Shown here: in pieces, positions 1 to 35,157 of the stretch
Layout: the number at the start of each line of letters is the position of its first letter
How positions within the stretch are numbered: the stretch's first letter is position 1
Position numbers and translations under genes: made by a program
Notes under the pieces: model-generated
Told to the model about the DNA's origin: nothing
Seen by the model: only the letters and a program-made list of their open reading frames with translations
Databases searched by the model: none
Virus record (IMG/VR): IMGVR_UViG_3300045988_084091
Coordinates: 1 to 37,038 of that record
Reading direction: 5' to 3' (one strand)
DNA from: a virus
DNA length: 37,038 nt

Positions 1-103
1 CGAGGAATGGAGGATGTACTTACGGCGCGAGATCGAGCGGCTGCTGATCCTAGCGGACACGCGGACGATGGAGATGACGCTGGAATTTCTGCGCGCAGCG
101 TAA
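1..103 (+). CDS. 3' part of the 36-aa ORF; redundant copy of 36912-37022 created by the terminal repeat
   Basis: Same frame and same stop (taa at 101-103) as 36912-37022. Not an independent gene. Confidence 0.6.
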   Translation, partial: EEWRMYLRREIERLLILADTRTMEMTLEFLRAA

Positions 104-119
104 AGAAAAACAAAAAAGC
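1..119. repeat. Left copy of the 119-bp terminal direct repeat
   Basis: cgaggaatggaggatgtactt...taaagaaaaacaaaaaagc is repeated exactly at 36920-37038. Confidence 0.95.
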
Positions 120-124
120 AAAGA

Positions 125-156
125 AAGAGGAGCAGGAAATCAATCCTGCTCCTCTT
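125..156. terminator. Bidirectional stem-loop terminator between convergent genes
   Basis: Stem aagaggagcagg / cctgctcctctt (12 bp) with loop aaatcaat. A-rich upstream and tcgtgtttt downstream. Lies between the plus-strand 36-aa ORF and the minus-strand repressor gene. Confidence 0.7.
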
Positions 157-520
157 TCGTGTTTTCCGCGGTGATCTGCCGGGCAAAGTCCTCGATGTCG
201 GCCCAGCGCTCTTCCGGAAGCCGGGCCAGCGCCAACAGGAACCGCCGCCGGAAATTGTCGTCCTCGCCCTGCATGACGTCGCCGACAAAGCGCATGATCT
301 CCTTGTCGCGCGAGATCTGGACGAACATCTCACCCTCGCCGGTGCGCAGCCACGTTTCATTGACGTTGAATTCGCGGCAGATTAAGGCGGCTGCGGTATC
401 GGATGCGTTGCGGCCAATTTCATAATTGGCAATCGCGCCGCGTTTCACGCCGATCCTGTCCGCGAATTCTTGCTGTGTCAAGCCAAGCGCTTGCCGCAGC
501 TCTTTTATTCTGTTTCCCAT
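140..520 (-). CDS. XRE-family HTH transcriptional repressor (CI-like), 126 aa
   Basis: The internal ATG at 520 is preceded by AGGAGG (ttcacaaggaggtaaatgc ATG). The N-terminus MGNRIKELRQALGLTQQEFADRIGVKRGAIANYEIGRN is a classic XRE helix-turn-helix. Divergent from the early operon. Confidence 0.85.
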   Translation of the reverse strand: MGNRIKELRQALGLTQQEFADRIGVKRGAIANYEIGRNASDTAAALICREFNVNETWLRTGEGEMFVQISRDKEIMRFVGDVMQGEDDNFRRRFLLALARLPEERWADIEDFARQITAENTKEEQD

Positions 521-542
521 GCATTTACCTCCTTGTGAATCA

Positions 543-571
543 AGGATAGCACAGACGTTGCTATCCGTCAA
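543..571 (-). promoter_or_regulatory. Sigma70-like promoter of the repressor gene, with an inverted-repeat operator in the spacer
   Basis: The minus strand reads TTGACG-17 nt-TATCCT. The spacer holds the inverted repeat ggatagc(n9)gctatcc (544-566). Confidence 0.55.
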
Positions 572-600
572 CGAAAAAATGCAAAATAACACAAAAAGTC

Positions 601-629
601 TTGACAAATGTGTCTGCATTGATTATTAT
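601..629 (+). promoter_or_regulatory. Early (lytic) sigma70-like promoter
   Basis: TTGACA (601-606), a 17-nt spacer, then TATTAT (624-629). Back-to-back with the repressor promoter. Confidence 0.7.
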
Positions 630-654
630 TTCAATAGAAACGCAAATCAATGCA
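615..654. promoter_or_regulatory. Perfect 10-bp inverted repeat (putative operator) bracketing the -10 and start site of the early promoter
   Basis: tgcattgatt (615-624) and aatcaatgca (645-654) are exact reverse complements. Confidence 0.6.
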
Positions 655-681
655 ACGCACCGTTGGAAGGAGGTGGACAAA

Positions 682-816
682 ATGCTGACGAATAACGAGC
701 AGAAGACGCTGGAGCGGCTGGGCCGCATGATGCAGAACATGAACGACATGCAGAAGGCGCAGCTGTGTGCCTTTACGGAAGGCTTGGCGATGGCGCTGGA
801 GCGAAAAGGCGCGTGA
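682..816 (+). CDS. Small early protein, 44 aa, unknown function
   Basis: ATG at 682 lies 8 nt after GGAAGGAGGTGG. First gene downstream of the early promoter. Confidence 0.6.
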   Translation: MLTNNEQKTLERLGRMMQNMNDMQKAQLCAFTEGLAMALERKGA

Positions 817-878
817 GGCGGCTTTATTTGCCGTCTCCGCCCTTCTTTCCATTGCCGGAATGCCCGTCTGCTCGACAG

Positions 879-922
879 TGGAACCAGAATGGAACCAATC
901 TGGAACCAGAATGGAACCACAG
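879..922. repeat. Four tandem 11-bp units (TGGAACCA core), iteron-like
   Basis: tggaaccagaa tggaaccaatc tggaaccagaa tggaaccacag. The 11-bp spacing equals one helical turn. Lies in an intergenic region. Confidence 0.8.
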
Positions 923-930
923 TATAGAGT

Positions 931-986
931 AGAAGAGGTTTAGTAAAGGCTTAGGAAAGACAAGAAGAGGTTTAGTTAAGGCTAGG
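931..986. repeat. Two copies of a ~25-bp direct repeat
   Basis: agaagaggtttagtaaaggcttagg (931-955) and agaagaggtttagttaaggctagg (963-986). Intergenic, followed by the GC palindrome gcgccgcggcgc. Confidence 0.75.
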
Positions 987-1056
987 TGGTTGCGCGCGGG
1001 CGCGAGCGCCGCGGCGCACATCCCAAGAAACGAATTTTCGACAAAGGAGAATCCTC

Positions 1057-1296
1057 ATGGAGAAAGAACGCACCGTCACAACAAACGAAGCGGATGCCGC
1101 CATCGAGGCGGAGATCGCGCATCTGAGAGCGGACGAGTATGTCCGGCTCGCTAAGCGCTACGAGTACGCGCGTACCCGCCGCAAGCAGTATCTGTATCAG
1201 CTCCGATACTTCCAGAAGAAAGGCCGTGAGCTTGCCGCCCTCGGCGTAACGATGGAAAACCTCGATGAGATGCTGTGTAGCTCGGAGGAGGCGTGA
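1057..1296 (+). CDS. Hypothetical early protein, 79 aa
   Basis: ATG follows AAAGGAG. The sequence looks like a charged helical protein. Tightly packed with the next gene. Confidence 0.7.
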   Translation: MEKERTVTTNEADAAIEAEIAHLRADEYVRLAKRYEYARTRRKQYLYQLRYFQKKGRELAALGVTMENLDEMLCSSEEA

Positions 1297-1299
1297 CCC

Positions 1300-1530
1300 A
1301 TGCCGAAATTGAGAAAACGCGCCAGCCGCTACGATCAACTGCAGGTGCTGCTTTATGGGCAGCTCCGGATGCACGGCACGAAGCCGGAGGATCTGCTCGG
1401 CTGCTGCCGCGAGACGGCGGCGAAGCGCCTGCGGGACATCGACCGCATGCCGGTCGGCGACCTGCTCGCGCTCGGGCGAGGGCTTGACATTCCGATCGCC
1501 GACCTCCGCGCGGCGATCAGGTATCAGTAA
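1300..1530 (+). CDS. Hypothetical early protein, 76 aa (possible DNA-binding)
   Basis: ATG follows GGAGGAGG. The basic N-terminus and helical content suggest an HTH-like protein, but no firm motif was seen. Confidence 0.65.
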   Translation: MPKLRKRASRYDQLQVLLYGQLRMHGTKPEDLLGCCRETAAKRLRDIDRMPVGDLLALGRGLDIPIADLRAAIRYQ

Positions 1531-1551
1531 ACGAGAGAAAGGGGAAACAAC

Positions 1552-2619
1552 ATGAACGAAATCACAGTCACGTCGCAGCAGCAGCTTGACAATCTGCCGC
1601 ACGACTGTCATGGAATAATCTACATCAAGTTCGGCACGCCGTATGATAAGGCTATCGTAAGGCGGAAATATGATTTTGCCTCCGTCGTGGCGCGGGGGAA
1701 CAGCTACGTCGTGGCGTGGGGGAACAGCTCCGTCGAGGCGTTGGAGAACAGCTCCGTCGAGGCGTGGGGGAACAGCTCCGTCGTGGCGTTGGAGAACAGC
1801 TACGTCGTGGCGCGGGAGAACAGCTACGTCGTGGCGTGGGGGAACAGCTCCGTCGTGGCGTGGGAGAACAGCTCCGTCGAGGCGTTGGAGAACAGCTACG
1901 TCGTGGCGTGGGGGAACAGCTCCGTCGTGGCGTGGGGGAACAGCTCCGTCGTGGCGTGGGAGAACAGCTCCGTCGTGGCGCGGGGGAACAGCTACGTCGT
2001 GGCGTGGGGGAACAGCTCCGTCGTGGCGTTGGAGAACAGCTCCGTCGAGGCGTGGGGGAACAGCTCCGTCGTGGCGTTGGAGAACAGCTACGTCGTGGCG
2101 CGGGAGAACAGCTACGTCGTGGCGCGGGGGAACAGCCAAATCAATCAAAAGAGCGATGCATCTAAAATTAACGCATCCAGTAATGCGCGCGTTGTGCACG
2201 ACCCGCACACCATTGACGAATATGTCGATTTTTACGGCATTGAGAACAGCAACGGCAAAGCGAAACTGTTTAAAGCGGTGCGGAAGCACGACGGTGTGTA
2301 CCGCTCGAACTGGGATGCAGATTTTGTGTATACAATCGGGGAATCAGTTGCGGCAGACGGCTTTTGCGCTGACCCTAACGAAGATTGCGGGCGCGGTATC
2401 CATATGGCCTATCTCGACTGGTGTCTGGCATACGGAAACTGCTGGACTGATCTCGCAATCCTCGAAGTCGAAGCGGACATGAGCACAGTTGTTGTGCCGA
2501 AATGCGGCTCCGGCAAAGTTCGCGCCCCGTCTTGCAAAGTGATTCGGGAGGTTCCGCTGGAAGAATGCGGCTTGTACGGAAAGGCGCTGGCCAAGCGCAG
2601 AAACGGAGGGGCAGCATGA
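1552..2619 (+). CDS. Octapeptide-repeat (beta-solenoid-like) protein with a Cys/His-containing C-terminal globular domain, 355 aa
   Basis: ATG follows AAAGGGGA. Contains 19 in-frame units of A-[RWL]-[GE]-N-S-[YS]-V-[VE], then a non-repetitive C-terminus (DPNEDCGRGIHMAYLDWCLAYGNCW). Its stop overlaps the next start (ATGA). Confidence 0.8.
   Translation: MNEITVTSQQQLDNLPHDCHGIIYIKFGTPYDKAIVRRKYDFASVVARGNSYVVAWGNSSVEALENSSVEAWGNSSVVALENSYVVARENSYVVAWGNSSVVAWENSSVEALENSYVVAWGNSSVVAWGNSSVVAWENSSVVARGNSYVVAWGNSSVVALENSSVEAWGNSSVVALENSYVVARENSYVVARGNSQINQKSDASKINASSNARVVHDPHTIDEYVDFYGIENSNGKAKLFKAVRKHDGVYRSNWDADFVYTIGESVAADGFCADPNEDCGRGIHMAYLDWCLAYGNCWTDLAILEVEADMSTVVVPKCGSGKVRAPSCKVIREVPLEECGLYGKALAKRRNGGAA
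1678..2136 (+). repeat. 24-bp tandem repeat tract (19 full units plus a partial leading unit), inside the CDS
   Basis: Unit gcg[c/t][g/t]gg[g/a]gaacagct[a/c]cgtcg[t/a]g. Full units start at 1690. All six reading frames are open across the tract. Confidence 0.95.
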
Positions 2620-2771
2620 AAGTGTTCGGGGACCCGAAGGTGAAAGCAAAGGCGCGCCGCTATATCGTCTGGGGCATCGAGGACGGCATCGTCTGTGCGA
2701 GCTTCCTAGGCGGCATTGCGCTGGCCGGGTGGGTGTTCCACGTGGTCTTCACGGCACTGGGGGTGGCATGA
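2616..2771 (+). CDS. Small membrane protein, 51 aa
   Basis: ATGA overlap with the upstream stop. Hydrophobic C-terminus GIVCASFLGGIALAGWVFHVVFTALGV. Confidence 0.6.
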   Translation: MKVFGDPKVKAKARRYIVWGIEDGIVCASFLGGIALAGWVFHVVFTALGVA

Positions 2772-3136
2772 TGACGGAAGAACAGCGCCGTATGCATAAC
2801 GCATACGCTCGGGCGTACTACGCGCAGCACCGAGACCGCATCCTACAAAACAAGCGCGATAACCGCGAAGCGCGCAACGCATATATGCGCAAATACCGCG
2901 CGGCGAACTACGAAAAGCTGGCTGCGTACTACAGCAACAGACGGCGCAAAAAATCGCGTGACACCGCTTTCGGCGCGTTTTTGCTGGAAAACGGTATCAC
3001 GCAGACGGCAGCGGCAAAAATGCTCGGCGTGTCTGTATCAACGGCAAACTGCTGGGCGAACGGAATCACGACCGCGAACGAAGATAAGATCCGCGCAGTG
3101 TGGCCGGAGTATGGGGGTGCGGAATGCCGAAACTGA
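2768..3136 (+). CDS. Basic protein with a C-terminal HTH, 122 aa
   Basis: ATGA overlap start. The N-terminus is R/K/Y-rich. The C-terminal NGITQTAAAKMLGVSVSTANCWANG looks like a helix-turn-helix. Confidence 0.65.
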   Translation: MMTEEQRRMHNAYARAYYAQHRDRILQNKRDNREARNAYMRKYRAANYEKLAAYYSNRRRKKSRDTAFGAFLLENGITQTAAAKMLGVSVSTANCWANGITTANEDKIRAVWPEYGGAECRN

Positions 3137-3285
3137 CGATCGAACCGCCGGTTGATCCCCCAGCCTACACCTGCCCGCGCTGCCCGGTGTGCGATGCGGA
3201 GACGGACAAGCTGCTACGTGACCGATGGGGAAACATTGTCGGCTGCCCGGAATGTGTGAAGGAGGTAGACGCATGGACATTGTAA
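3124..3285 (+). CDS. Zinc-ribbon protein, 53 aa
   Basis: ATG at 3124. Two CxxC pairs (CPRCPVC ... CPEC). Confidence 0.6.
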   Translation: MPKLTIEPPVDPPAYTCPRCPVCDAETDKLLRDRWGNIVGCPECVKEVDAWTL

Positions 3286-3566
3286 GTGACACCTACATTC
3301 ACGGCGGCATCCCGCAAAGCCGCTATTGCAGCAGTTGTGCACACTATCAGGCACTTTCCGGCAGCAGCATCGACAGCAACTGCGGCGGCAGTGCGCGCGT
3401 CTGCCTGTACATCCTCGACACCGGCCATCGGCGTGGATGCTTGCCCGGCCCCGGCTGTGATAAGCACATTACATTCGCGCAGTGGCGCGAGAGCGAGCGC
3501 GGCCGCGCCGTCCTGCGGAAGAAGCGCAGCCAGAGCCGCCCCAGAAAACGGAGGGAAGCACCATGA
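3273..3566 (+). CDS. Cys-rich hypothetical protein, 97 aa
   Basis: ATG at 3273 follows GAAGGAGG. Cysteines are spaced CSSC...C...C...C..C, and the tail is basic. Confidence 0.6.
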   Translation: MDIVSDTYIHGGIPQSRYCSSCAHYQALSGSSIDSNCGGSARVCLYILDTGHRRGCLPGPGCDKHITFAQWRESERGRAVLRKKRSQSRPRKRREAP

Positions 3567-3772
3567 CGACTGACCGCGCAACGCTGCATTACATCCTCTC
3601 CAGGGCACGCATCTACTTTGCCGGCGAGCACATTGCCTGTGATTACTGCCCGTGTCTGGAAACATACAGCCGCAAGCAGTGCCGCCTCACCGGCGAGTAT
3701 CTGCTCGACACACGAACCATCGGGTACAACTGCCCGCTGGAGTTTGAGCCGGAAGGAGATGAAACAACATGA
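3563..3772 (+). CDS. Cys-rich hypothetical protein, 69 aa
   Basis: ATG at 3563 follows GGAGGGAA. ATGA overlap with the upstream stop. Confidence 0.6.
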   Translation: MTTDRATLHYILSRARIYFAGEHIACDYCPCLETYSRKQCRLTGEYLLDTRTIGYNCPLEFEPEGDETT

Positions 3773-4302
3773 ACAAATTCCGTTGCCTGCGCGCGGACGA
3801 GATCGAGTGCCGTGTGCAGCAGGTCAAGGATAACGGTCTTGTCCTCCTGCTCTACAAAGATGCGCGCTGCGACATGACCATCCTGGACGAGACGGTCGGC
3901 GCGATGAACTGGCAGCGTGAGCACCGGCGCGATAACGCCAACTGCGTCGTGTCTATCTGGGACAGCGAAAAAGGGCAGTGGATCAGCAAGGAGGACACCG
4001 GCACGGAATCCAACACGGAGGCGGAAAAGGGCCTTGCGTCCGACAGCTTCAAGCGAGCGTGCGTCAACTGGGGCATCGGCCGCGAGCTGTACACTGCACC
4101 GTTTATCTGGATACCGGCAGGGAACTACACTGCCAACGGCCGCAAGTGCTATGACAAATTCGCAGTCGAGAAGATCGAGTACGTGAAAAATGACGACGGC
4201 TCCGACCGTCACGAAATCCTGAATCTATCCATCCGAAACACGACCATGAACAAGCGCGTGTTTGTCCACATCGGCAGCACCGCAAAGAAAGGAAGTAAAT
4301 AA
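3769..4302 (+). CDS. Rad52/Sak-type single-strand annealing protein, 177 aa
   Basis: The motif GLASDSFKRACVNWGIGRELY matches the conserved Rad52/Rad22-family core as I recall it. Lies immediately upstream of SSB. Confidence 0.7.
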   Translation: MNKFRCLRADEIECRVQQVKDNGLVLLLYKDARCDMTILDETVGAMNWQREHRRDNANCVVSIWDSEKGQWISKEDTGTESNTEAEKGLASDSFKRACVNWGIGRELYTAPFIWIPAGNYTANGRKCYDKFAVEKIEYVKNDDGSDRHEILNLSIRNTTMNKRVFVHIGSTAKKGSK

Positions 4303-4303
4303 C

Positions 4304-4771
4304 ATGATTATTCGCACAAGAACCGGCGACTGCATCGTTGCCGGGAGACTTTCCCGTGACGCAGAGTTTTCCAACGTCGGCTCGAAAAACACGCCGCTGA
4401 CGAAGTTTAGCATTCCTGCCCGAGACACCGTGCAGCCGGACGGCAGCAAGCAGACCGAATGGATCAACTGTGAGGTGTGGTATGAGGCCGCCATGAATGC
4501 CGCGCAGCTCAAAAAGGGTGATTCTGTCATCGTATGTGGGCAGCTCTCCACGCGCAGCTATACCACCCGCGACGGGGAGGAACGCAGCGAGGAGCGCCTG
4601 CGTGCAGACGCCTTTGTCAAAGCGTCCGTGCCGGTCTCTTCTGCCAGCGTGGAGCAGCTTGCCTCCGCCTATCCCGGCGTCGTGCGCGGCGTCGGAGTTG
4701 TCGCGGACGACTTCACGAATGAGCCGAAGTTTGAGGAACTGCCGGAGGATGAATCCGACCTTCCGTTTTGA
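4304..4771 (+). CDS. ssb: Single-stranded DNA-binding protein, 155 aa
   Basis: OB-fold-like N-terminal region and the typical acidic C-terminal tip EDESDLPF. ATG at 4304 follows AAAGGAAG. Confidence 0.85.
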   Translation: MIIRTRTGDCIVAGRLSRDAEFSNVGSKNTPLTKFSIPARDTVQPDGSKQTEWINCEVWYEAAMNAAQLKKGDSVIVCGQLSTRSYTTRDGEERSEERLRADAFVKASVPVSSASVEQLASAYPGVVRGVGVVADDFTNEPKFEELPEDESDLPF

Positions 4772-4783
4772 TCGGAGGCCGCC

Positions 4784-5515
4784 ATGGCAGAAAAGCGAAT
4801 GTTCGCGCGCTCGCTCATCGACAGTGACGCGTTTCTGGAGATGCCGCTCTCCGCGCAGGCGCTGTATTTCCACCTCAACATGCGCGCGGATGACGACGGG
4901 TTCATCAACAACCCGAAGCGCATCACGGACTATGTCGGCGCGGCGGCTGACGATCTGAAGCTGCTCCTTGCAAAGCGCTTTATCATCGTCTTTGATTCCG
5001 GCGTCATTGTCATCCGGCACTGGCGCATGCACAACACGCTCAAAAGTGACCGATACCATCCGACGAACTATCAGGAAGAGTTTGCAACACTCTGCCTAGA
5101 GGAAAACAAGGCATACTCCGAGCGACCGCAGACGACACCTGCCGCAGAACCGGCCAGAGTGGAAAAGCCAGCAGCGCGCCCGGCGCAAAAAGCCGCCGCA
5201 AAGCCTCCGGAAAAGAAACCCTATGGAGAAATGCACAACGTCATGCTCGCGGATGACGAGCTGGAAAAGCTCCAGCGAGATTACCCGAACGACTACGAAA
5301 CATATGTCGAGCGCCTGTCCCTGTACATCACCAGCAAAGGCGCGCGGTACAAATCCCACTACGCCGTCATCCGGCAGTGGCTTGCAAAAGACGGCGTGAA
5401 GGCAGAGAACGAGAAGCGCGCGCCGGTCTCCGGTAAGGACGACCTGGACAAAGTGGAGCGAATGCTCGCTGCCATGAAGGGGGGTGCGCAGGATGCCTAC
5501 CATGTTAGCCCTTGA
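4784..5515 (+). CDS. Phage replisome organizer / DnaD-like replication initiation protein, 243 aa
   Basis: The N-terminus MFARSLIDSDAFLEMPLSAQALYFHLNMRADDDGFINNPKRI matches the replisome-organizer N-terminal domain pattern. It is followed by a Pro/Ala linker and a helical C-terminal domain. Confidence 0.75.
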   Translation: MAEKRMFARSLIDSDAFLEMPLSAQALYFHLNMRADDDGFINNPKRITDYVGAAADDLKLLLAKRFIIVFDSGVIVIRHWRMHNTLKSDRYHPTNYQEEFATLCLEENKAYSERPQTTPAAEPARVEKPAARPAQKAAAKPPEKKPYGEMHNVMLADDELEKLQRDYPNDYETYVERLSLYITSKGARYKSHYAVIRQWLAKDGVKAENEKRAPVSGKDDLDKVERMLAAMKGGAQDAYHVSP

Positions 5516-5981
5516 CCCCGGCAACCGGGAAACCGGCTGGTGCATCGTCGATACGATCACCCGCGCACCGGTGCAGGGGGGAAAGGACGAGAACACACTC
5601 GTCTCCGTCATTGTGACCTGCGGCGCGTTCACCGTTGCCGCGATTGAGATCATCGAATCTTACGGCATGGCGGTCGGGCGCGACGTGTTTGAGACGTGCG
5701 AGTGGATCGGACGCTATAAGCAGCTACTCGACGACCGCGGCGTACCGTACCACATCGTCACGCGCAAAGAGGAAAAGCTCAATATCTGCGGCAGCTCTCG
5801 CGCGAACGATACCACGATCCGCCACGCGCTGATTGACCGCTTCGCGTCGCACGACTTCCGCAGCGGCAAGGGCACGAAAGCAAATCCAGACTTTTTCTAC
5901 GGCTTCCGCGCCGATCAGTGGAGCGCGTATGCCGTTGCAACGACCGCCCTCGACAGGGAAGAAAAGGAGATACTTATATGA
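5493..5981 (+). CDS. RuvC-like Holliday junction resolvase, 162 aa
   Basis: The N-terminal LALDPGNRETGWCIV carries the catalytic Asp signature. The size and position after replication genes fit. GTG 5484 and ATG 5502 are alternative starts. Confidence 0.6.
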   Translation: MPTMLALDPGNRETGWCIVDTITRAPVQGGKDENTLVSVIVTCGAFTVAAIEIIESYGMAVGRDVFETCEWIGRYKQLLDDRGVPYHIVTRKEEKLNICGSSRANDTTIRHALIDRFASHDFRSGKGTKANPDFFYGFRADQWSAYAVATTALDREEKEILI

Positions 5982-6205
5982 AAACTTATATGACGATCAA
6001 CCAAACAGTAAGAGAGACGGGTTTCTCTGAGGGTATGCTCCGCGCTCGACTCAAGCGCAACAAGCTACCCGGCTTCTATGCCGGATCCCGCTATTACATC
6101 AATGTCCCGCTCTTGATGGAGATGCTCGACGCGGAATGCCGGTTGAACGCATCCCTCGACCGGGCGGAAGAGGAGGGCGACTATGAGCGTCTATGTCAAC
6201 TTTGA
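5978..6205 (+). CDS. Excisionase/MerR-type HTH DNA-binding protein, 75 aa
   Basis: MTINQTVRETGFSEGMLRARLKRNKLPGFYAGSRYYI resembles the excisionase-family HTH. ATG follows AAAGGAG. Confidence 0.55.
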   Translation: MKTYMTINQTVRETGFSEGMLRARLKRNKLPGFYAGSRYYINVPLLMEMLDAECRLNASLDRAEEEGDYERLCQL

Positions 6206-6452
6206 CCACTTGATTGACTATCTCAGGTGCGTTCGCAAGAACAGGGGAGTCAATATTTCGCCATACATGGACAACGCTTTGCTTAATGTTCAGCAACTTT
6301 TGGAAATCGATGTGCACAACCCGATACTGTTTGATTATGTCGAAATCGGTGGCTGTGATGGTTGTTCGTGGAAGGGCTTACGGCATCAGAGGTGTTCGTG
6401 TTGCCGTAGAAATAGATTTTTGAAGGACGGATACACCAAGAAGGAGGGCTGA
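6183..6452 (+). CDS. Hypothetical protein, 89 aa (Cys-rich C-terminus)
   Basis: ATG follows GAGGAGGG. Ends ...KKEG* inside the junction sequence that is repeated downstream. Confidence 0.6.
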   Translation: MSVYVNFDHLIDYLRCVRKNRGVNISPYMDNALLNVQQLLEIDVHNPILFDYVEIGGCDGCSWKGLRHQRCSCCRRNRFLKDGYTKKEG

Positions 6453-6454
6453 CA

Positions 6455-6514
6455 ATGGCTGAATACCTAGAGCGGGGAGCACTGAGGGGGCGAAGCGGCG
6501 ATGTATTCCCTTGA
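6455..6514 (+). pseudogene. 19-codon remnant of the N-terminus of the 6701-7021 gene
   Basis: Starts with the same RBS and first codons (aggagggctgacaATGGCTGAATAC) as the intact gene 246 bp downstream, then diverges and hits a stop. Confidence 0.55.
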
Positions 6515-6698
6515 GTACAAATTGCTATACACCCCCCGCGAGGAGCTGACTAAAAACCGCACGTTCCAAAGCTACCGGTGGAAGCAGTACGCTGTGTGTG
6601 AGGAGCGCGGGCCACTGGAACAAATTAGGGACGCGCAGAAAAGGACGAAGGAGTGGAGAATTATCCCACTTGCCGGAAGCGTGGAACAGGAGGGCTGA
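6501..6698 (+). CDS. Hypothetical protein, 65 aa; looks like an inserted cassette
   Basis: Open frame flanked by the duplicated gene junction. Ends ...EQEG*, just as the upstream gene ends ...KKEG*. Confidence 0.5.
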   Translation: MYSLEYKLLYTPREELTKNRTFQSYRWKQYAVCEERGPLEQIRDAQKRTKEWRIIPLAGSVEQEG

Positions 6699-6700
6699 CA

Positions 6701-7021
6701 ATGGCTGAATACATCGAGCGTGAAGCGGCGATGCTGCTGCCCGAACTGCCAAAGGAGTATAGGCACTATCAAACAGACAACCTTGATGATGCATATGAAC
6801 AAGGGTGGGATGATGCGCTTTGCTGCCTTGAACATATCCCCGCCGCCGACGTTGCGCCGGTGGTGCATGGAGATTGGCTTCTAAGGCACATCGGGGTAGG
6901 ACATTACTGGGAGTGTTCAATCTGTCACACAAACCCGTGCATTTATATAACAGAACACACGAAGTTCTGCCCAAACTGCGGCGCTAGAATGGACGGTGAT
7001 AGCAATGCCAAAGCGGATTAA
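6701..7021 (+). CDS. Hypothetical protein with a C-terminal zinc ribbon, 106 aa
   Basis: ATG at 6701 follows AGGAGGG. The N-terminus is MAEYIEREAA. The C-terminus carries CSIC...CPNC. Confidence 0.7.
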   Translation: MAEYIEREAAMLLPELPKEYRHYQTDNLDDAYEQGWDDALCCLEHIPAADVAPVVHGDWLLRHIGVGHYWECSICHTNPCIYITEHTKFCPNCGARMDGDSNAKAD

Positions 7022-7277
7022 CCCGCGCCGGAGACCGGCGACGATGGCAGACGTGCAGCGCGCGAAGGACACGGCGACGGCAGATGCCTGCCGCGTGACA
7101 CTGGCCATCTTTTTCACGGCCCTGCTGGACAAAGAGGGCATGGACGCGGAGCAGCTCCAGCGCATCTGGCGCGAGGTCGAGGCGCTGAGCGAGAGCGTGC
7201 GCGACGGATATGTCTCCGCGCCAGACCTGATCCGCGTGCTGCGCGATGAGTACGAGATCGACATTGTAGGAGGGTAA
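7005..7277 (+). CDS. Hypothetical protein, 90 aa
   Basis: ATG at 7005 overlaps the upstream gene end. Basic N-terminus and helical body. Confidence 0.6.
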   Translation: MPKRINPRRRPATMADVQRAKDTATADACRVTLAIFFTALLDKEGMDAEQLQRIWREVEALSESVRDGYVSAPDLIRVLRDEYEIDIVGG

Positions 7278-7281
7278 AGCC

Positions 7282-7863
7282 ATGCGTAGAAAACCGCTCG
7301 CGCCGCTTACGCCGGAACAGCAGCAGCTCGCAGCGGACAACGAGCGTCTGATCTATCTGGCGATCCGTCGCTACGCACCGAACGAGGACGCCGATGAGCT
7401 GTATGGGTACGCTGCCGAGGGCTTGCTCAGAGCCGCGAGTACATACGATCCAACGCGCGGAAAGTTTTCTACGCACGCGATGTGGTGCATGCGCGGCGCG
7501 GTCGTCTTCAATCAGCGCTGCGCGAAACGGAAGAAGCGTTCAGGAAAACTGGTACTGCACATGGATGACGTTGACGCGGTTGACCCGAACGAAGAATATA
7601 ACGCGGAAATGTGCGGTGTCGCGCCGCTGAAAGACAGGCCGTGCCTGTCGCTGGACGAAACCGGCGCGGATGTTGAACGCTTTCTGCGGTCACTTCCTGC
7701 GCGCGATCGTGAACTCGTTCGTATGCGCATTGGCGGCGACACGCTCAAAGAAATTGGAGACACATTTGGAATCACAATTCAGGCAGCCAGCGCGCACATG
7801 AAGCGCATAGCAAATAAGTGGGAAGCATTTGAACTCTATGGGACACAAGAAAGGAAAAGATAA
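7282..7863 (+). CDS. Sigma-70 family RNA polymerase sigma factor (phage-encoded), 193 aa
   Basis: A region-2-like segment (ELYGYAAEGLLRAASTYDPTRGKFSTHAMWCMRGAV) and a region-4 HTH (LPARDRELVRMRIGGDTLKEIGDTFGITIQAASAHMKRI). ATG follows GGAGGG. Confidence 0.75.
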   Translation: MRRKPLAPLTPEQQQLAADNERLIYLAIRRYAPNEDADELYGYAAEGLLRAASTYDPTRGKFSTHAMWCMRGAVVFNQRCAKRKKRSGKLVLHMDDVDAVDPNEEYNAEMCGVAPLKDRPCLSLDETGADVERFLRSLPARDRELVRMRIGGDTLKEIGDTFGITIQAASAHMKRIANKWEAFELYGTQERKR

Positions 7864-7865
7864 CA

Positions 7866-8108
7866 ATGAACGAAAACGCAATGTGGGAAGGCGTGCGTAA
7901 CGACGCGCGCAACGAGCTACGCCTCAGCATCCTGACGGATGCGATCTTCAACGCCGCCCGGCTGAACTACAGCGGTGAAAAGCTCGCCTTTGACGACGAC
8001 GAGCTTGGTACCGTGCTCCGGGCAATGTACCCGGATGACTACAACAGCGTTCTCGCAAATCTGCAAGCGCCCAAGGCTGGCACTGCAAAGGACGGTGATG
8101 CATTTTGA
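7866..8108 (+). CDS. Hypothetical protein, 80 aa
   Basis: ATG at 7866 lies directly after the sigma factor stop. No recognisable motif. Confidence 0.6.
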   Translation: MNENAMWEGVRNDARNELRLSILTDAIFNAARLNYSGEKLAFDDDELGTVLRAMYPDDYNSVLANLQAPKAGTAKDGDAF

Positions 8109-8598: not shown

Positions 8599-8633
8599 AG
8601 CAGCGCACGAAACCGTGCGCTGCTTCTTTCTTT
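8599..8633. terminator. Bidirectional rho-independent terminator between the converging early and late operons
   Basis: Stem agcagcgcacg / cgtgcgctgct (11 bp), loop aaac, followed by tctttctttac. A-rich on the other side. Confidence 0.8.
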
Positions 8634-11600
8634 ACCCGAACAGTTTCCAGAGCTGGTTGAACTGCGCGGCCGTGTAGCCGTTTTGCAAAGCCCACACCTG
8701 CAAGTCGGCTTTCTTGTATTTGTTCTTTCCGTCCTCCGTCTTTGCGGTCTTTGCCTGATAGAAGTCTGCGATCTGCTGCAGCGAGTAGCCGCCCTCGTAG
8801 GCGGTCTCCACCTTTGCCTGCGTGTTTTCCGTGAGCTTCTGTGGCATGACATTGAGCGCGAGCCGGTCACTGCCGCCGCGTTTGCCGACGACCGTCTTGA
8901 TGATTGCCTGCATCACGTCGCCGTTGCGGTCTCTCGCATCGGCCGGAAGCGTGTCTTTTGCGGTTCCGAGCTTGGCGCGGTATACGGCGTTGTCTGCCAC
9001 GCTGCCGCTGCTCTTCGTCGTCCAAGCCGGGGTGTCGCCGCCGTCGAGCTTCGCCTTCTTCTTGCCGGCCGCCGTTGCGACTTCCAGCAGGTTTTGAATT
9101 GCGGCCGCTTTCTCCGCGTCGCTCGACTGCTTGTATACCGAACTCCGAATGACTTTCTGGATGTTGTCATAGGCCGTCTGACCGTATGCCATCTGGTACT
9201 GCCGCCTCTCGACCTGATCCAGCGACACTTTTTCGCCGTCTCTGTTTCCGCTGTTTGGCGCTTTCTTCTCCGGATATTTTATGTCGATGTTCTCGCCGAG
9301 CCGGTACAGCTCTTGGTTCACGGCGCTCGTCCGGTACTTCGTCACGCTGCCGGGATTCAGTGTCGCGTTCAGGAAGTTTTCCGCCGCCGTGCCGGTGTAT
9401 TTCTTCTCCCGCCCCCAGTTGTCCAGCGCAGCCGGAAGCGTTTCCCGAAGCCCAGGAATCTTGCTCTTCATCGCGTTCAGGCTGTTTTCCCACACGGTGT
9501 CGCCGTTGTAGGTGTCGCGCACCGTACCGTCAACCCCCTGCGCCACGCCGGACACGACGTTTGGCACAAAACTTGTTGTCTGAGAAGCACCGTAGCGCAG
9601 GGCGGCTTCCGCAACCTTCCCGCCCGTGGTATCTGCCTTGGAGTATTTATAGCCGTTCGCAATTTCCTGAAACTGCGACATAGCGGGCAGATCCATCACG
9701 CTCTGAAAAGCAGATTCCAGATTGCCGCCAGCAACATTTGTAAACGTCAGGCCCTCGTCCTTGTAGCAGTCCGCCAGCAGCGCGCCATAGGTCATCTGCG
9801 CGTTGATCGGGTCGAGGAAGCCGTTAGATACCAGGTCGTCACCGTCGCGCCACTCCGTGCTTTCTCCGGCAATCCACCGGTTGAGTGCACTAAGGTTGAG
9901 CTGTGTGCCGTTGACGCCCTCGGACTTTTCAAGCGCTTCCTTGTCCTTGTCGTCGTCCCCGGCGACGTTCATCACGCCAGCCCCGGCCAGCACCGAAAAG
10001 AGCGCGATGCCCATCGTACCGTTGAACGCGCGGCCGAAATCCGTCACAGCCTTCGCCTGTTCGGCTGCGGTCAGCGTCCCGGCCTTTGCCTTGTTCAAGA
10101 CTTTGACGACCTCCACACCGGCTTTTATAAACCCGGCAGGGGAGTATTGAATCGCTGCGCTCGCAATGTTTCCGGGCACGTTCGTGAACGGGAGCATAAT
10201 GTCGCCGAGACCGATGCTGCCGCCCTGCTTGTCCTTGATGCTGAGCTTGTTCAGTGCATTGCGCATTCCGCCCATGACACCGGACAGCTTGCCTTCGTTC
10301 TGGAACGTGCGTTCCCTTGCGATTTCCTCCGCGCGGCCGTCAAGCGCGCCTTTTGCCACCTTGCCCTTAGCTTCCAGCGCGTCAATTCCGCGCTGCGCTT
10401 CCGCCTGAATGCCGCCTTTTTGCATCTGGTCAGACGTGACCATGGCATAGTTGCTGTATTTCTCCCACGTGGAGAGAAACCGTTCCAGAAAGTTTCCGGT
10501 CATCTTGAACGACCTGCTGCCGCCGGTTTCGTATTTGCCCTGCGCGTTGGAAACGCTTGCGTCAAGGCCAGTTTCAATGTACGACTTGAGCGCTGCTTCG
10601 CCCATGCCTTTTCGTTTCGCCTTGGAGAGATAGCTCTTATCCGCAGCTACGGAGCGTGTGCCGGTGTATTTCGACAGCAGCATGTCCAGCCCGACGCCGA
10701 TGTTGTTTGACACGGCCTCTACCGGGTCATACACCATATTGCCGACAAGGTTTCTGGCAGCCGTCGCCGGTTTCGAGAGCATGGACAGATAACGATAGGT
10801 TTTGATCTGTTCGAGCGTAGACGGTTTTGCGTAGTCATACGCAATGCCGCGCACCTGGCTTTCGGCAACGTCACGCAGAAACGCTTCGCCGCCCGGCAGC
10901 TTCTTTGCCTGCTCAAGCGCCTTTTCCATTGTCCTGCCCATCTTGTTTGACCACAGACCATTTGTGCGCCGCTCCGTGCTCATGTCTTTGATGAGGTCAA
11001 CCACGCCGTCCACGTCGCCTTTTTCGATGCTGCGCAGCTTCTCTGCGTGCTGGCTCACGCTATCGAGAATCTTTTTGCGCTGCTCGTCCGACATTTTGCG
11101 CGTGCGCTCGCTGTCGTTCAGCAGTTGGATCGCGGCCGCTTCCATTAGCGCCGGGTCAGACGCGAGCTGCCGACGCTGCCGCAGCGCCTGACCGGCTTCC
11201 GTGCCATGCGCATCCCACTCTTTCATGAGCTTTGCCACTTCGGCGTAGGCATCTTTGCTGCCGCTCTCGCGCGCTTTGGCTACTTCTTTTACGATGATCT
11301 TGTGTGCAAGCACCGTGTCGGTATCGTCCCAGTCCTGCTTTTCACCGAACAGGTCTGCCTTTTCGCCCTCGTAGTCCGATTCAAAGCGCTCCTGTGCCTT
11401 CGCGTTTACCTCTTCGTCATGGTTGACTTTGTGCGTCCGGTCTTCCGGTCTCAGCCCTTCCATCGCGCGCTCGTCATCGGTGAGCACACCGTCGGTCGAG
11501 CGCGTCTGTGTCCGCGCCTCGTTATAGCCAAACTCCGCGGATTTTGCACCCTGTCCTTCCGGCAGCGTGCCGCGCTGTCCGGCGTCCATCTCCGTCTCCT

Positions 11601-13185
11601 GCTGCTGCACGTCTGCAAAATTATCACTGTTTTGTGCATCAGCCGCGTTTTCAGCGCTTTCATCCACAATTTCTCCCGCTTTTTGTGGCTGTTCTTCACT
11701 CTTCGCGGCCTCTCCGGGGATGTTCTGCGTCAGCGCTGCGCGCTTGATCTGCGCTCGCTGGTCGGCCTTCGTTCCGGCCAGCGTTTCGCCGGTCTGGCGC
11801 TCAAACTCCGCGCGCAGACCCGCGTCTTTGATGATGCGCTCCGCCTCGCTGTTCGAGATAACGCCATTTTTCAGCAGTGCGCGCACAGTTGTCTGACTGT
11901 CTTCGGCCTGCGCAGTCTCGACAGGTGCGGCCTCTGCCTGCGCTTCTGCGGCGATATTTTCTGCCTCTGCCGGTTTCGCGCTCGCTTCTGCGTTTACGTT
12001 TGCGGCCGGTTCTCCGGCACGCAGAGCAGCATTTTTCTGCGCGTCTATGCCTTTTGCGATGCCCGCCGCCGTGCCGAATGTAGACAGCGCCGCGCCGATC
12101 ATCGCGTCATACGCAGACTGCGCGAGCATTTCCTTCGCGCCTTCTGCCGTCGTGTAGTTCGCTTTTGCCGCCGCGCCCTTGTCGTAGATCGCGCGGATCG
12201 CCGGTGTCAGCAGGTCGCTCACAGCTTCCTCGGCGCCCTCGCCGACGGCGTTGGTCAGCGCGCGCACGATGCTGCGCCCCGTGTCTGTCTTTGCGAGCTT
12301 TTGTATCAGCTTTTCCGCCACGTCGTCCGCAGCGCCGCCTCCGAACAGCTTGCCGACGTCGAACATTTTCTCCGTTGCGATCTGCACGGCCGCCTGCGCC
12401 GCGCCGTAGATTACCTGCTCTCCGCCGCTTGCGCCGTCCATCATCGCCTCGCGTGCGCCGTTGCCGAAAGCCCGCACGCCCATGCTGGCAAGGCCCGCGC
12501 CGGGAATCAGCGCGTTGACCGCCATGTCCGCGCCGAGTTGCAGCCCGCCGGAGGCGATGTCCACCAGCGCGCCCGCTGCGGCGCTGCCGCCGAGATTGTC
12601 TTTCGCCGCTTCGCGCGCCTCCCACGCCGCCGTGTCTGCCGCCTCTGCTTTTGCGTACATGTTCGCTTGGTTGCGCTGCCGGGCAGCTTCCGCCGTGGCC
12701 TTGTCCGCTTCCGATACGGCATCGTCCGCGACCGTCACGCCCATGATCTGCGTGCCGCTGCGCTTACTCATCATCGCTCCGACGGCGCTTTCATAGGCGC
12801 TTTCTGCGCCTTTCACAGCGGATTTCACGATGTTTCCGCCCGCTTCCGCCGTCTTGCTCTCCTGCATATTGCTCTCGCGGTAATCATCCGAGATTGCCTG
12901 ATTCGTCAGGGCAAGCGGCGTTGTCGTGTCCGCGCTGTAACCGGCGTCGCCGAAAGCGTTGAGCAGCTTCTCCCAGAAGCCGATGTTCTCTTTCTTCTTC
13001 TGCGGCACAGGTTCAGAAATTGGCTCGGTGACAGGTTTCTGCTTGGCAGCAGTGTCTTGCGTCGCCGCCTGGCCCCACGCCTTATCCATTTTGTATTTTG
13101 AACCGCCGTAAGCCTTCTTGCCGTACTCTCTGTCAATTTTCTCCCGGCTGCTCTTTGCGTACTGTTTCAGAAAGTCAGATGCCAT
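8632..13185 (-). CDS. Very large virion-associated protein (putative internal/ejection or polyvalent-type protein), 1517 aa
   Basis: Uninterrupted 4.5-kb ORF, last gene of the late operon. The N-terminal third is Ala/Glu/Gln-rich, and hydrophobic segments follow (GTMGIALFSVLAGAGVMNVAG). ATG at 13185; TTG 13191 is also possible. Function was not recognised. Confidence 0.85.
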   Translation of the reverse strand: MASDFLKQYAKSSREKIDREYGKKAYGGSKYKMDKAWGQAATQDTAAKQKPVTEPISEPVPQKKKENIGFWEKLLNAFGDAGYSADTTTPLALTNQAISDDYRESNMQESKTAEAGGNIVKSAVKGAESAYESAVGAMMSKRSGTQIMGVTVADDAVSEADKATAEAARQRNQANMYAKAEAADTAAWEAREAAKDNLGGSAAAGALVDIASGGLQLGADMAVNALIPGAGLASMGVRAFGNGAREAMMDGASGGEQVIYGAAQAAVQIATEKMFDVGKLFGGGAADDVAEKLIQKLAKTDTGRSIVRALTNAVGEGAEEAVSDLLTPAIRAIYDKGAAAKANYTTAEGAKEMLAQSAYDAMIGAALSTFGTAAGIAKGIDAQKNAALRAGEPAANVNAEASAKPAEAENIAAEAQAEAAPVETAQAEDSQTTVRALLKNGVISNSEAERIIKDAGLRAEFERQTGETLAGTKADQRAQIKRAALTQNIPGEAAKSEEQPQKAGEIVDESAENAADAQNSDNFADVQQQETEMDAGQRGTLPEGQGAKSAEFGYNEARTQTRSTDGVLTDDERAMEGLRPEDRTHKVNHDEEVNAKAQERFESDYEGEKADLFGEKQDWDDTDTVLAHKIIVKEVAKARESGSKDAYAEVAKLMKEWDAHGTEAGQALRQRRQLASDPALMEAAAIQLLNDSERTRKMSDEQRKKILDSVSQHAEKLRSIEKGDVDGVVDLIKDMSTERRTNGLWSNKMGRTMEKALEQAKKLPGGEAFLRDVAESQVRGIAYDYAKPSTLEQIKTYRYLSMLSKPATAARNLVGNMVYDPVEAVSNNIGVGLDMLLSKYTGTRSVAADKSYLSKAKRKGMGEAALKSYIETGLDASVSNAQGKYETGGSRSFKMTGNFLERFLSTWEKYSNYAMVTSDQMQKGGIQAEAQRGIDALEAKGKVAKGALDGRAEEIARERTFQNEGKLSGVMGGMRNALNKLSIKDKQGGSIGLGDIMLPFTNVPGNIASAAIQYSPAGFIKAGVEVVKVLNKAKAGTLTAAEQAKAVTDFGRAFNGTMGIALFSVLAGAGVMNVAGDDDKDKEALEKSEGVNGTQLNLSALNRWIAGESTEWRDGDDLVSNGFLDPINAQMTYGALLADCYKDEGLTFTNVAGGNLESAFQSVMDLPAMSQFQEIANGYKYSKADTTGGKVAEAALRYGASQTTSFVPNVVSGVAQGVDGTVRDTYNGDTVWENSLNAMKSKIPGLRETLPAALDNWGREKKYTGTAAENFLNATLNPGSVTKYRTSAVNQELYRLGENIDIKYPEKKAPNSGNRDGEKVSLDQVERRQYQMAYGQTAYDNIQKVIRSSVYKQSSDAEKAAAIQNLLEVATAAGKKKAKLDGGDTPAWTTKSSGSVADNAVYRAKLGTAKDTLPADARDRNGDVMQAIIKTVVGKRGGSDRLALNVMPQKLTENTQAKVETAYEGGYSLQQIADFYQAKTAKTEDGKNKYKKADLQVWALQNGYTAAQFNQLWKLFG

Positions 13186-13187
13186 TG

Positions 13188-14339
13188 TCAAGATACCTTT
13201 CCATAGCCGACCGTTCTATAAGTATAGGTGCCGTCTCCGTTGTCGACCTCTTTCACCTTCCCACCGTTCACAAGCGCTTCCAGCTCGCTCGGCGTCACAC
13301 GACCGTAGCCGCGCACCAACGTCCACCCGGAGCCGTTCACATTCGTGATGGAACTGTTTTCGTGAATGCTCGAAAGGTCTTGCGTGCTGCTAGGCGCGGG
13401 ATCCCGCACCGGAGTCGGCGTGTCACCGCCGCCTCCGCCGCCGGTCTTGTAGGTCGATGCCGTGTAGCTCGCCGGATATGCGCCCGTGCGCTCGTAATAG
13501 AGCTTCGGGTTCTGCGCGCCCCACACTTTCTGCATCGCGTCGATCTGATCCTGCGAATAGCCGAGCGCCGCATAACCGCTGAAATCGCCGTACTTGGCGA
13601 GCGTCGCGGCCTGCTGTTCGAGGCGGCTGCGCTCGTTTTCCGAAAGCGTCGTGTCTACACTAAGCTGCTTGACCGCCGTGTTGACGATGGAGTTATCCAC
13701 ACGCTGTGCCTCGGTATAGAGCGCCTTCGCGCGTTCCGCGTCGTTCTCGCTGATTGCCTGTGCGACCGCGTTCTGATACGCCGTCTTTACCTTCTGCCGC
13801 TGCGCCTCGAGGGCGGACATCGCGTCTGCCTCTGCGGACGATACTTTACCCATGGCGGAATTGCGGCTGTTCTGCTGCGAGAGTGCGAGCTGACTGCCAG
13901 CACCGGTATTGATGCCACTGCCCGCCATCTGTTCGTTCAGGTTCGCGCGGGAAATGTCCGCCTGCGTCGATACCTGCCGCCGCGCTTCGTTGTACGTCTG
14001 CGGGATCTTCGCGGCCTGTGTGTCATAGTCCGCCATGTTCTGGTCGTAGGCCGCTTTCAGCGCGTCGGTCTTTGCCTTTTGCTGCGCGTCGTAAATCTTG
14101 TTGATGTTGTCGCTCAGGTCACTTGCCGTCGGCAGAACCGTGTTGTTGCCGACCATCTTATAACCGCTTCCGTCCGCGCCGCCGCTGTAGCCGTACTTCT
14201 TGCGGATAAGCTCTGCCTGCTCGTGTGCCTCGTTCATTCCGCCCTGATTTCCGGCCTTCTGCGCGGCTTGCCACTGCTCACCGAGCGCGGCGATTTTCTG
14301 CTTGTCGGCGCTGTTCATGATTGCGTCATTGTATGCCAT
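13188..14339 (-). CDS. Hypothetical late protein, 383 aa (coiled-coil, Gln/Ala-rich, Gly6 linker)
   Basis: ATG at 14339 follows GAGGTGA. Its stop overlaps the start region of the 1517-aa gene. No catalytic motif recognised. Confidence 0.8.
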   Translation of the reverse strand: MAYNDAIMNSADKQKIAALGEQWQAAQKAGNQGGMNEAHEQAELIRKKYGYSGGADGSGYKMVGNNTVLPTASDLSDNINKIYDAQQKAKTDALKAAYDQNMADYDTQAAKIPQTYNEARRQVSTQADISRANLNEQMAGSGINTGAGSQLALSQQNSRNSAMGKVSSAEADAMSALEAQRQKVKTAYQNAVAQAISENDAERAKALYTEAQRVDNSIVNTAVKQLSVDTTLSENERSRLEQQAATLAKYGDFSGYAALGYSQDQIDAMQKVWGAQNPKLYYERTGAYPASYTASTYKTGGGGGGDTPTPVRDPAPSSTQDLSSIHENSSITNVNGSGWTLVRGYGRVTPSELEALVNGGKVKEVDNGDGTYTYRTVGYGKVS

Positions 14340-32668: not shown

Positions 32669-32710
32669 GTTGAACTTGCGTTGAACGTGCGCTGAACTTG
32701 CGTTGAACAT
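32669..32710. repeat. Four tandem 11-bp units (GTTGAACTTGC type), 110-150 bp upstream of terS
   Basis: gttgaacttgc gttgaacgtgc gctgaacttgc gttgaacat. The units share the ACTTGC core with the two hairpin loops downstream of terS. Confidence 0.8.
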
Positions 32711-33321: not shown

Positions 33322-33333
33322 TAATTTACATAG

Positions 33334-33385
33334 CTAAGTAATAACTAAGTAATAGCTATTACACAGCTATGTCATAGCTATTACA
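33334..33385. repeat. AT-rich array of phased repeats and palindromes (putative protein-binding array)
   Basis: ctaagtaata occurs twice with an 11-bp period. atagctattaca occurs twice with a 22-bp period. Perfect palindromes gtaatagctattac (33349-33362) and agctatgtcatagct (33365-33379). About 100-150 bp upstream of the RHH-gene promoter. Confidence 0.75.
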
Positions 33386-35142: not shown

Positions 35143-35157
35143 GATTTTATGAAACTA

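Follow-up and report, generated by a model that had tools for sequence, protein, structure and literature searches.

What kind of protein is encoded by a phage gene that consists in large part of near-identical 24-bp units, and how are these units kept alike while a few of their codons stay mixed? The question is raised by the open reading frame (ORF) at positions 1552..2619 (+) of a 37,038-nt stretch of viral DNA (IMG/VR record IMGVR_UViG_3300045988_084091; the whole stretch is hereafter called the window), which according to the ORF list is a complete gene with a 355-aa product. We consider it probable that this is a gene of a temperate gut phage whose product joins an N-terminal cap, a rod of ~18.6 repeat units and a domain of the rIIB/Gad2 type, with an array that evolves in concert and an anti-defence role early in infection. 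The part of this picture that is new is the octapeptide array, concertedly evolving and previously undescribed; the part that was known is the uncharacterised DUF7666/rIIB-C domain family.

The octapeptide array evolves in concert

Tandem Repeats Finder reported a single array (1680-2136; period 24, 19.0 copies, 90% matches, no indels, score 704). Read in frame from 1690, it consists of 18 complete 24-bp units (1690-2121) between two partial ones: three codons from the end of a unit (SVV) stand before unit 1, and a 19th unit agrees for its first 15 nt, i.e. five codons (ARGNS), and diverges in the rest. A first-pass annotation, made from the sequence alone, had counted 19 units from 1690; the array and its octapeptide stand, and the count becomes 18 complete units and part of a 19th. 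The unit product is A-[R/W/L]-[G/E]-N-S-[Y/S]-V-[V/E], and eight distinct unit types occur in the window array. As had been observed, variation is limited to unit positions 4 (C/T), 5 (G/T), 8 (G/A), 17 (A/C) and 23 (T/A), with two states each; all five fall on the first or second base of a codon, and each of the changes is non-synonymous. The consensus unit, with up to three mismatches allowed, was found 18 times in the window, always inside the array, and 0 times in shuffled sequence.

Compared with itself at a lag of 12 units, the array shows 1 mismatch in 144 nt, against 7-14% mismatches at other lags. Thus, the 288-bp higher-order repeat, in which units 1-6 recur as units 13-18 with a single nucleotide difference, is real. 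The tract is free of stops in five of the six frames, not in all six as had been thought: one minus-strand frame has seven stops, which are created by TAC units. The three long shadow ORFs that had been attributed to the repeat are all present (Table 1), their translations being repeats of the out-of-frame unit.

More than 1800 homologues came out of the protein search, and the window protein matches PHROG 15773 (E 3.8e-25). The relatives have a common design, with a ~46-residue N-terminus, a run of A-x-x-N-S-S-V-x units and a C-terminal region of ~160 residues, and the lengths of the closest ones deviate from 355 by multiples of eight residues. Relatives with as little as ~45% identity still have the octapeptide with its variable positions, and the very recent expansion proposed earlier is therefore too narrow a description: the unit is ancient.

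Other searches returned little. No Pfam model covers the octapeptide repeat; the Pfam matches to MNSV_P7B and FapA on the repeat were driven by composition and lay far below threshold, and the sole NCBIfam match, a sub-threshold DfrA18, was spurious. The array does not belong to the pentapeptide repeats, as its period is eight and not five and there is no pentapeptide Pfam match. A PADLOC search found nothing, megablast of window positions 1-8000 against GenBank phages gave no match, and the PDB sequence search yielded nothing at E<=1 and at E<=10 only low-complexity repeat matches to BLIP-II. The exact window protein is absent from the assembly collection searched.

For the analysis of its evolution, arrays were taken from 156 related loci. 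The codon comparison covered 70 non-identical arrays with 776 core units. Where two units encode the same amino acid, their codons disagree in 0.6-4% of pairs if both units belong to one array and in 17-77% if they belong to different arrays, and 56 of the 70 arrays are wholly devoid of synonymous variation. The lack of synonymous change noted in the first-pass annotation holds for the window array, but there, taken alone, it falls short of significance (P = 0.10 by site position, 0.26 by mutational opportunity), because only five sites vary; it becomes significant, and compelling, only with the family-wide data. A synonymous switch at codon 6 provides direct evidence of concerted evolution: close relatives with 98.5% identical coding flanks have TCT or TAT at this codon in every unit, where the window has TCC or TAC, the third base being homogenised whatever the state of the adjacent S/Y site.

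Thus, the array undergoes concerted evolution with gain and loss of units, in line with the earlier proposal: synonymous codons are homogenised within arrays and differ between them. The process is unequal recombination or slippage between units, by which whole units or blocks are gained and lost with the frame kept and which homogenises the DNA of all units, synonymous sites included. Three codons per unit escape this homogenisation and stay two-state (W/R, G/E and V/E).

Length-variable alleles in steps of eight codons, which had been predicted, were indeed found. The protein P0002 is the window protein without units 7-18, and its contig (L001, 36,750 bp, i.e. 37,038 - 288) is 99.99-100% identical to the window over 17.9 kb, bar the 288-bp indel. 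The deletion junction lies within a 100-nt stretch identical in both 144-bp blocks, and this 12-unit-shorter allele may have arisen by a genuine deletion through recombination, or the assembly may have collapsed the two blocks into one. Among relatives whose flanks are 97-99% identical, the arrays range from 2.6 to 18.6 units; the order of units differs, yet blocks of units are common to them.

The alternative of an assembly artefact, in which the long array, or the number and order of its units, would come from mis-assembly of short reads and the true gene would have fewer or reordered units, has to be taken seriously even if we regard it as unlikely. The window begins and ends with the same 119 nt (direct repeat, 1-119 and 36920-37038), and this terminal overlap marks it as a circularised k = 119 assembly, the true genome being ~36,919 bp. 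The array reaches a contig end in 47 of 137 related loci (34%), several circular contigs are split inside it, and all assemblies, with perhaps one exception, are from short reads, so that unit order and number per contig may in part be artefactual. These points, together with the junction of the otherwise identical shorter contig in a stretch common to both blocks, weigh against reading each array at face value. On the other hand, array length is always in frame between conserved flanks, independent samples gave identical arrays (two pairs, one being L004 = L005), and a near-perfect array of ~14 units lies inside a 1.2-Mb circular contig. The unit composition is real because the 24-nt unit types are far shorter than a read, and the assembly graph could resolve the array because its longest exact repeat (~100 nt) is shorter than k = 119. 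Mis-assembly bears on the count, not on the existence of the array or its evolutionary pattern. Both of these are real and the length variation is very likely so, whereas the exact count of 19 in the window is not secure, given the share of loci in which the array stands at a contig end; of the earlier claims it is this one that stays exposed to the artefact that the annotation had itself named as a danger.

Contigs starting or ending in the array include L042/L063, L039/L079 and L072/L081. The repeat gene breaks or is miscounted in about one-third of short-read phage assemblies, and its alleles are therefore systematically misrepresented in viral catalogues.

Relation of the C-terminal domain to rIIB and Gad2

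The C-terminal domain, which the first-pass annotation had described as being of unknown function, can be assigned to a type (rIIB C-terminal/DUF7666/DUF5758, homologous to the Gad2 C-terminus). Modelled alone (residues 217-355) with AlphaFold2, it reached a predicted local distance difference test score (pLDDT) of 94.1 and a predicted template modelling score (pTM) of 0.88. A Foldseek search against BFVD gave 41 matches at E<=1e-3, mostly rIIB proteins (prob 1.00, template modelling (TM) score 0.65-0.72, root-mean-square deviation (rmsd) 2-3 A), among them the RB43 rIIA-rIIB fusion and N4-type rIIB-like proteins; the other matches include DUF7666 proteins, a phage 'Pentapeptide' protein and giant-virus DUF4116 proteins. 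Two rIIB families of PHROG were also matched (11221, E 4e-6; 609, E 7e-4). In an hhalign comparison that is marginal on sequence alone (prob 57.8%, E 1e-4), the family profile aligned residues 249-334 with residues 220-307 of T4 rIIB, placing CGRGIH onto CSRGLH and GKVR onto AKMR (C-x2-G-[IL]-H and K-x-R). Within this motif, C279, G282, I283 and H284 are conserved in at least 90% of 64 homologues.

The relation to Gad2 emerged from tblastn against annotated phages. It matched rIIB genes of phiCbK-like Caulobacter phages and a 400-residue protein of SPbeta-like Bacillus phages, annotated as Gad2 in SPbetaL6 and SPbetaL7; the matches to Gad2 and Gad2-locus genes of SPbeta-like phages had E values of 1e-4 to 9e-8 at 33-37% identity. 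The family profile aligned with Gad2 residues 289-391 (hhalign prob 96.6%, E 6.8e-10), and no counterpart was found to the N-terminal 288 residues. Via the family profile, Gad2 289-391 (L157:1634-2833, SPbetaL7) and T4 rIIB 220-307 (L082:2469-3404) align to the same domain.

Pfam DUF7666 (PF24703) matches the window protein over residues 251-339 (profile positions 8-92 of 95) with 23.9 bits and E 6e-5, and DUF5758 (PF19062) aligns only with the motif region 251-285, at 21.4-22.9 bits and below its gathering threshold of 26.9. Of 64 family members, 32 match DUF7666 and 30 match DUF5758 at E<=1e-3, and several carry a precomputed PF24703 match. Judged by these profile matches, the protein family as a whole belongs to DUF7666, with the window protein just below threshold. 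An exhaustive search with the C-terminal part retrieved 401 cluster representatives at 50% identity, and the domain is C-terminal in all of them. The region before it is of three kinds, made of near-perfect 8-residue units, of degenerate 8-residue units that resemble an ordinary diverged solenoid, or of near-perfect 9-residue units, which often alternate W/R and G/E as well. At the protein level, the 9-residue arrays with two-state positions include M[RW][EG]SSQV[KRG][EV] and [YS][GD]NATI[KE][YS]V, and relatives with such arrays are P0204, P0210, P0215, P0221, P0243, P0249, P0257, P0259, P0260 and P0265.

On the strength of these alignments and predicted folds, we assign the domain to the rIIB C-terminal/DUF7666 type and take it to be homologous to the C-terminus of Gad2. 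Several observations speak against drawing the three proteins closely together. The DUF7666 match of the window protein is below the 27-bit gathering threshold and T4 rIIB itself has no Pfam DUF7666 match; Gad2 is devoid of the Cys and His of the C...H motif; and the window protein, rIIB and Gad2 have only the one domain in common. No rIIA-type partner (GHKL-type ATPase) was found in the neighbouring genes or the largest ORFs of the window, the small ORFs having been scanned in part, and Pfam detected no helix-turn-helix (HTH)-like N-terminus in the window protein, where T4 rIIB gives weak HTH matches at residues 7-50. Our literature search found no paper that names DUF7666 or DUF5758 or that links rIIB with Gad2; a preprint cataloguing anti-defence genes makes no mention of Gad2 or rIIB, and the Tmn paper contains nothing on rIIB domains.

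The same domain might instead be a divergent enzyme of the ADP-ribosyltransferase (ART) type, with a downstream macro-domain gene as its eraser or immunity partner, which we consider very unlikely. Its sole non-trivial fold matches in PDB are Arr (2hw2, prob 0.84-0.87), Arr-2 (9iba) and IcmQ (4eyy), it contains conserved H284 and E305-x-E307, and a macro-domain gene (PF01661) is present in 11 related loci. However, the structural match has a TM-score of 0.39, an rmsd of 10.5 A and E 0.03, and Pfam and PDB sequence searches revealed no ART family. The known ART classes are H-Y-E and R-S-E; here H284 and E305 are 21 residues apart, much closer than in known ART folds. The macro-domain gene is found in a minority of the loci, which may be related phage lineages, and none stands at that position in the window.

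Where present, the macro-domain gene lies directly downstream of the repeat gene in L026, L027, L085, L097, L099, L104, L114, L117, L122 and L127 and elsewhere in the locus in L101. The downstream copies start 8-14 nt before the repeat-gene stop, and the gene may be a functional partner.

Two-state sites, the repeat rod and the genomic setting

Homogenisation that erases synonymous differences should also fix the non-synonymous ones, and something must therefore keep nucleotides 4, 8 and 23 of the unit mixed. In 103 distinct arrays with 1182 units, these three vary within 92%, 89% and 95% of arrays, respectively, compared with 21% or less for each other position, and only 1-3 of the 103 arrays are fixed for one state at any of the three. 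Among the 70 arrays of the codon comparison, the amino acid counts are W 411 and R 320 (L 22) at position 2, E 372 and G 354 (D 36) at position 3, and V 417 and E 332 at position 8. The paired states are one-nucleotide neighbours with the other bases in common: all 345 Arg codons are CGG or AGG and Trp is TGG, codon 3 toggles between GGR and GAR (G/E), and codon 8 between GTR and GAR (V/E). State frequencies per array are approximately binomial (p ~0.5, dispersion ~1.5), all eight combinations of states occur at similar frequency, and the states within a unit are almost uncorrelated. Coupling between the states of neighbouring units is close to zero at lags 1-6, with the exception of a V8-to-next-W2 anticorrelation (r = -0.14). 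The L at position 2 and the Y at position 6 of the window array are rare extras of its lineage. Array charge is net acidic, -0.43 ± 0.31 per unit across the family and -8 for the window array.

These patterns suggest that selection at the protein level, rather than neutral drift or a programmed mutator, maintains a mixed aromatic/charged, net acidic rod surface. Selection is favoured over a mutator because the alphabets are two-state and because relatives are set apart mainly by blocks of units gained or lost. The earlier claim of selection on surface positions accordingly holds in part: the variable residues are predicted to fall in the turn and at an outward strand position, but the alphabet is restricted to two states and this is not open-ended diversification. 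It weighs against this account that selection at the three sites is read from patterns, to which recurrent site-specific mutation is an alternative.

Programmed hypermutation, in which a diversity-generating retroelement or another targeted mutator would toggle the three nucleotides, appears very improbable to us. It would fit the finding that three nucleotides are polymorphic in ~90% of arrays next to uniform neighbours, and that the states are single-nucleotide neighbours and nearly independent even when 4 nt apart. But outside the array the window contains no further copy of the unit to act as a template, no reverse transcriptase was found among the called or scanned genes, and the changes across the family are T/C(A), G/A and T/A and thus not adenine-specific. 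Related arrays differ mainly by whole blocks and not by point toggles, and two amino acids are used per site where six to seven can be reached by one mutation, which points to selection. A retroelement target proper was rejected, as neither a template in the window nor a reverse transcriptase among the scanned genes was found and the variation is not adenine-specific (the sites in the window are C/T, G/T, G/A, A/C and T/A).

The AlphaFold2 model of the whole protein, built with 64 homologues, has a mean pLDDT of 86.5, with 70-90 in the array units. Each unit is predicted to form a 4-residue strand (positions 6, 7, 8 and 1, S-V-x-A) and a 4-residue turn (positions 2-5, [W/R]-[G/E]-N-S), which agrees with the beta-solenoid proposed in the first-pass annotation. 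Judging from strand alternation, A and V would face the core and positions 2, 3, 6 and 8 would be exposed. The rod is thus most likely a beta-helix, although fold matches in PDB lend weak support: the whole model matched right-handed beta-helices (tailspikes, PL6 lyases and SufBD) in Foldseek with E 0.04 at best and TM-scores of 0.3 or less, a point against this fold. The N-terminal segment was predicted to contain short strands and one helix (pLDDT ~90), and its motif recurs in distant relatives; Q9, L12, D13, P16, D18, G21, I23, I25, F27, G28, A34 and V45 are near-invariant in the 64 homologues.

Besides the cI/XRE-type repressor, the genome encodes an integrase, a large terminase and a P22-like portal, and it comes from a temperate phage of gut Clostridia, with hosts of the Oscillospiraceae, Ruminococcus or Lachnospiraceae type. 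The metagenome-assembled genomes that hold relatives belong to Oscillospiraceae, Ruminococcus, Lachnospiraceae, Acutalibacteraceae and other Clostridia and Bacilli. The repeat gene is the fourth gene of a rightward string that starts at a promoter-like site and continues with genes for an HTH protein, a Rad52-like protein, SSB and a sigma-like factor. Its position in this string next to the repressor makes the label of an early-operon gene, given in the first-pass annotation, a fair one: it stands downstream of the repressor and upstream of the Rad52-like and SSB genes, on the strand opposite to the portal/terminase/tail module, which is several kb away.

Table 1. Features of the window at and around the repeat gene
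Feature	Position	Strand	Remarks
N-terminal ~46 residues (ITVTSQQQLDNLP.D..G.IYIKFGTPYDKAIV...)	1552..1689	+	Family-wide conservation; probably the beta-helix cap
First 144-bp block (units 1-6) of the 288-bp higher-order repeat	1690..1833	+	
Second 144-bp block (units 13-18) of the 288-bp higher-order repeat	1978..2121	+	
C-terminal alpha/beta domain, residues 217-355	2200..2616	+	rIIB C-terminal/DUF7666/DUF5758 type
Motif C279-G-R-G-I-H284	2386..2403	+	Most conserved stretch of the C-terminal domain
Shadow ORF, 435 aa	982..2289	-	Kept open by the repeat; not a gene
Shadow ORF	1670..2482	+	Open through the repeat; not a gene
Shadow ORF	1716..2165	+	Open through the repeat; not a gene
cI/XRE-type repressor gene	140..619	-	Pfam HTH_3 E 2.8e-14, weak Phage_CI_repr; divergent from the early operon
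Promoter-like site TTGACA-17-TATTAT, 11/12	601..629	+	Consensus scan only; head of the rightward early string, divergent from the repressor
51-aa ORF with one hydrophobic segment	2616..2771	+	Start overlaps the repeat-gene stop (ATGA); only in the closest phage lineage

The 51-aa ORF downstream of the repeat gene has no Pfam match, and distant relatives have other genes there; as a membrane peptide confined to the closest lineage, it was rejected as a conserved downstream partner. A perfect hairpin with a 15-bp stem and T-rich tails on both strands, resembling a bidirectional terminator, is found at 123-158, just downstream of the repressor gene. Short tandem repeats of 11-12 bp at 33330-33398, 879-919, 32669-32708, 34915-34943 and 35156-35180 lie in intergenic or low-GC parts (GC 0.49 at 33-34 kb) and may relate to an operator, iteron or attachment site. 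The largest gene of the phage, a 1519-aa ORF (8632-13191, -), closes the structural module and matched no Pfam model at E<=1e-3.

That the protein is a structural component of the virion, a fibre or spike protein whose array would form a trimeric, triple-stranded beta-helix as in the T4 gp5 needle, is highly improbable: the 8-residue period is that of the gp5 C-terminal beta-helix (octapeptide VxGxxxxx repeats in a trimeric virion needle), a weak PHROG match points to a 'baseplate hub subunit and tail lysozyme' family (E 0.004) and tailspikes are among the Foldseek matches, but the gene stands by the repressor in the rightward early/replication module, opposite in strand to the structural genes, its C-terminal domain is common to the non-structural early proteins rIIB and Gad2, and a trimeric rod could exist without any role in the virion.

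Possible function and comparison with known systems

rIIB lets T-even phages grow on RexAB cells by an unknown mechanism; its expression is toxic, and it sets off a gasdermin/CARD system of bacteria (PMC10312443). It has also been reported to trigger the Tmn system (PMC13001434). Knock-out of gad2 renders SPbetaL7 sensitive to Gabija, and Gad2, which is itself toxic, has an N-terminal region predicted to be a nucleotidyltransferase (10.1101/2023.05.01.538930). Because of the homology to the rIIB/Gad2 domain and the early position of the gene, an anti-defence or host-takeover role is the likeliest reading for the window protein, and we put the chances that it is an early anti-defence or host-interference factor of the rIIB/Gad2 domain family at about even. 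The rIIB/Gad2-type domain would be its active part and the rod a scaffold or interaction surface variable in length and in the residues exposed.

More speculatively, the array may be a combinatorial recognition surface with three two-state residues per unit on a beta-helix, which would present or target the rIIB/Gad2-type effector domain and be quickly reshuffled in length and pattern by recombination. Such reshuffling might follow variable host defence proteins or escape sensors of rIIB-like proteins. We think this doubtful; it is suggested by analogy with TAL effectors, whose 34-residue alpha-helical repeats have a demonstrated one-repeat-one-base DNA code.

If the anti-defence reading is correct, a common rIIB/Gad2 module would be directed against abortive-infection or nuclease defences, and the phages described here would supply smaller and more tractable relatives for the rII problem; to our knowledge, the mechanism of rIIB has been unknown since the 1950s. 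The array would likewise be an unusually clean natural case of concerted evolution for studying selection and recombination in coding repeats, and it may serve as a designable beta-helical scaffold.

Among known systems, the likeness to TAL effector arrays is one of analogy only and consists in near-identical DNA units, few variable positions, a small alphabet and recombination that changes unit number and order. There is no homology between the two: the units of the window array are 8-residue beta-strand units with three binary positions, and their order is not conserved among close relatives. T4 gp5 similarly has beta-strand repeats with an 8-residue period, but these have diverged at the DNA level, whereas the window gene belongs to the early module and carries an rIIB-type domain. 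Some DUF7666/DUF5758 proteins (the 'Pentapeptide' and DUF4116 proteins) resemble the window protein in having a repeat or solenoid region followed by this domain; they differ in that the window repeat is of eight residues with units near-identical at the DNA level. Gad2 has a homologous C-terminal domain and is likewise a phage gene, located in an anti-defence locus, but has an N-terminal part of ~288 residues in place of the cap and array. The comparison with rIIB takes in the rIIB-like proteins of T4-like, N4-like, phiCbK-like and jumbo phages. T4 rIIB has the same predicted C-terminal fold with aligned motifs and is also encoded by an early, non-structural phage gene, but it has an HTH-like N-terminus and no octapeptide array and works together with rIIA; furthermore, the rIIB phages are virulent on Proteobacteria, whereas the window phage is temperate on Clostridia.

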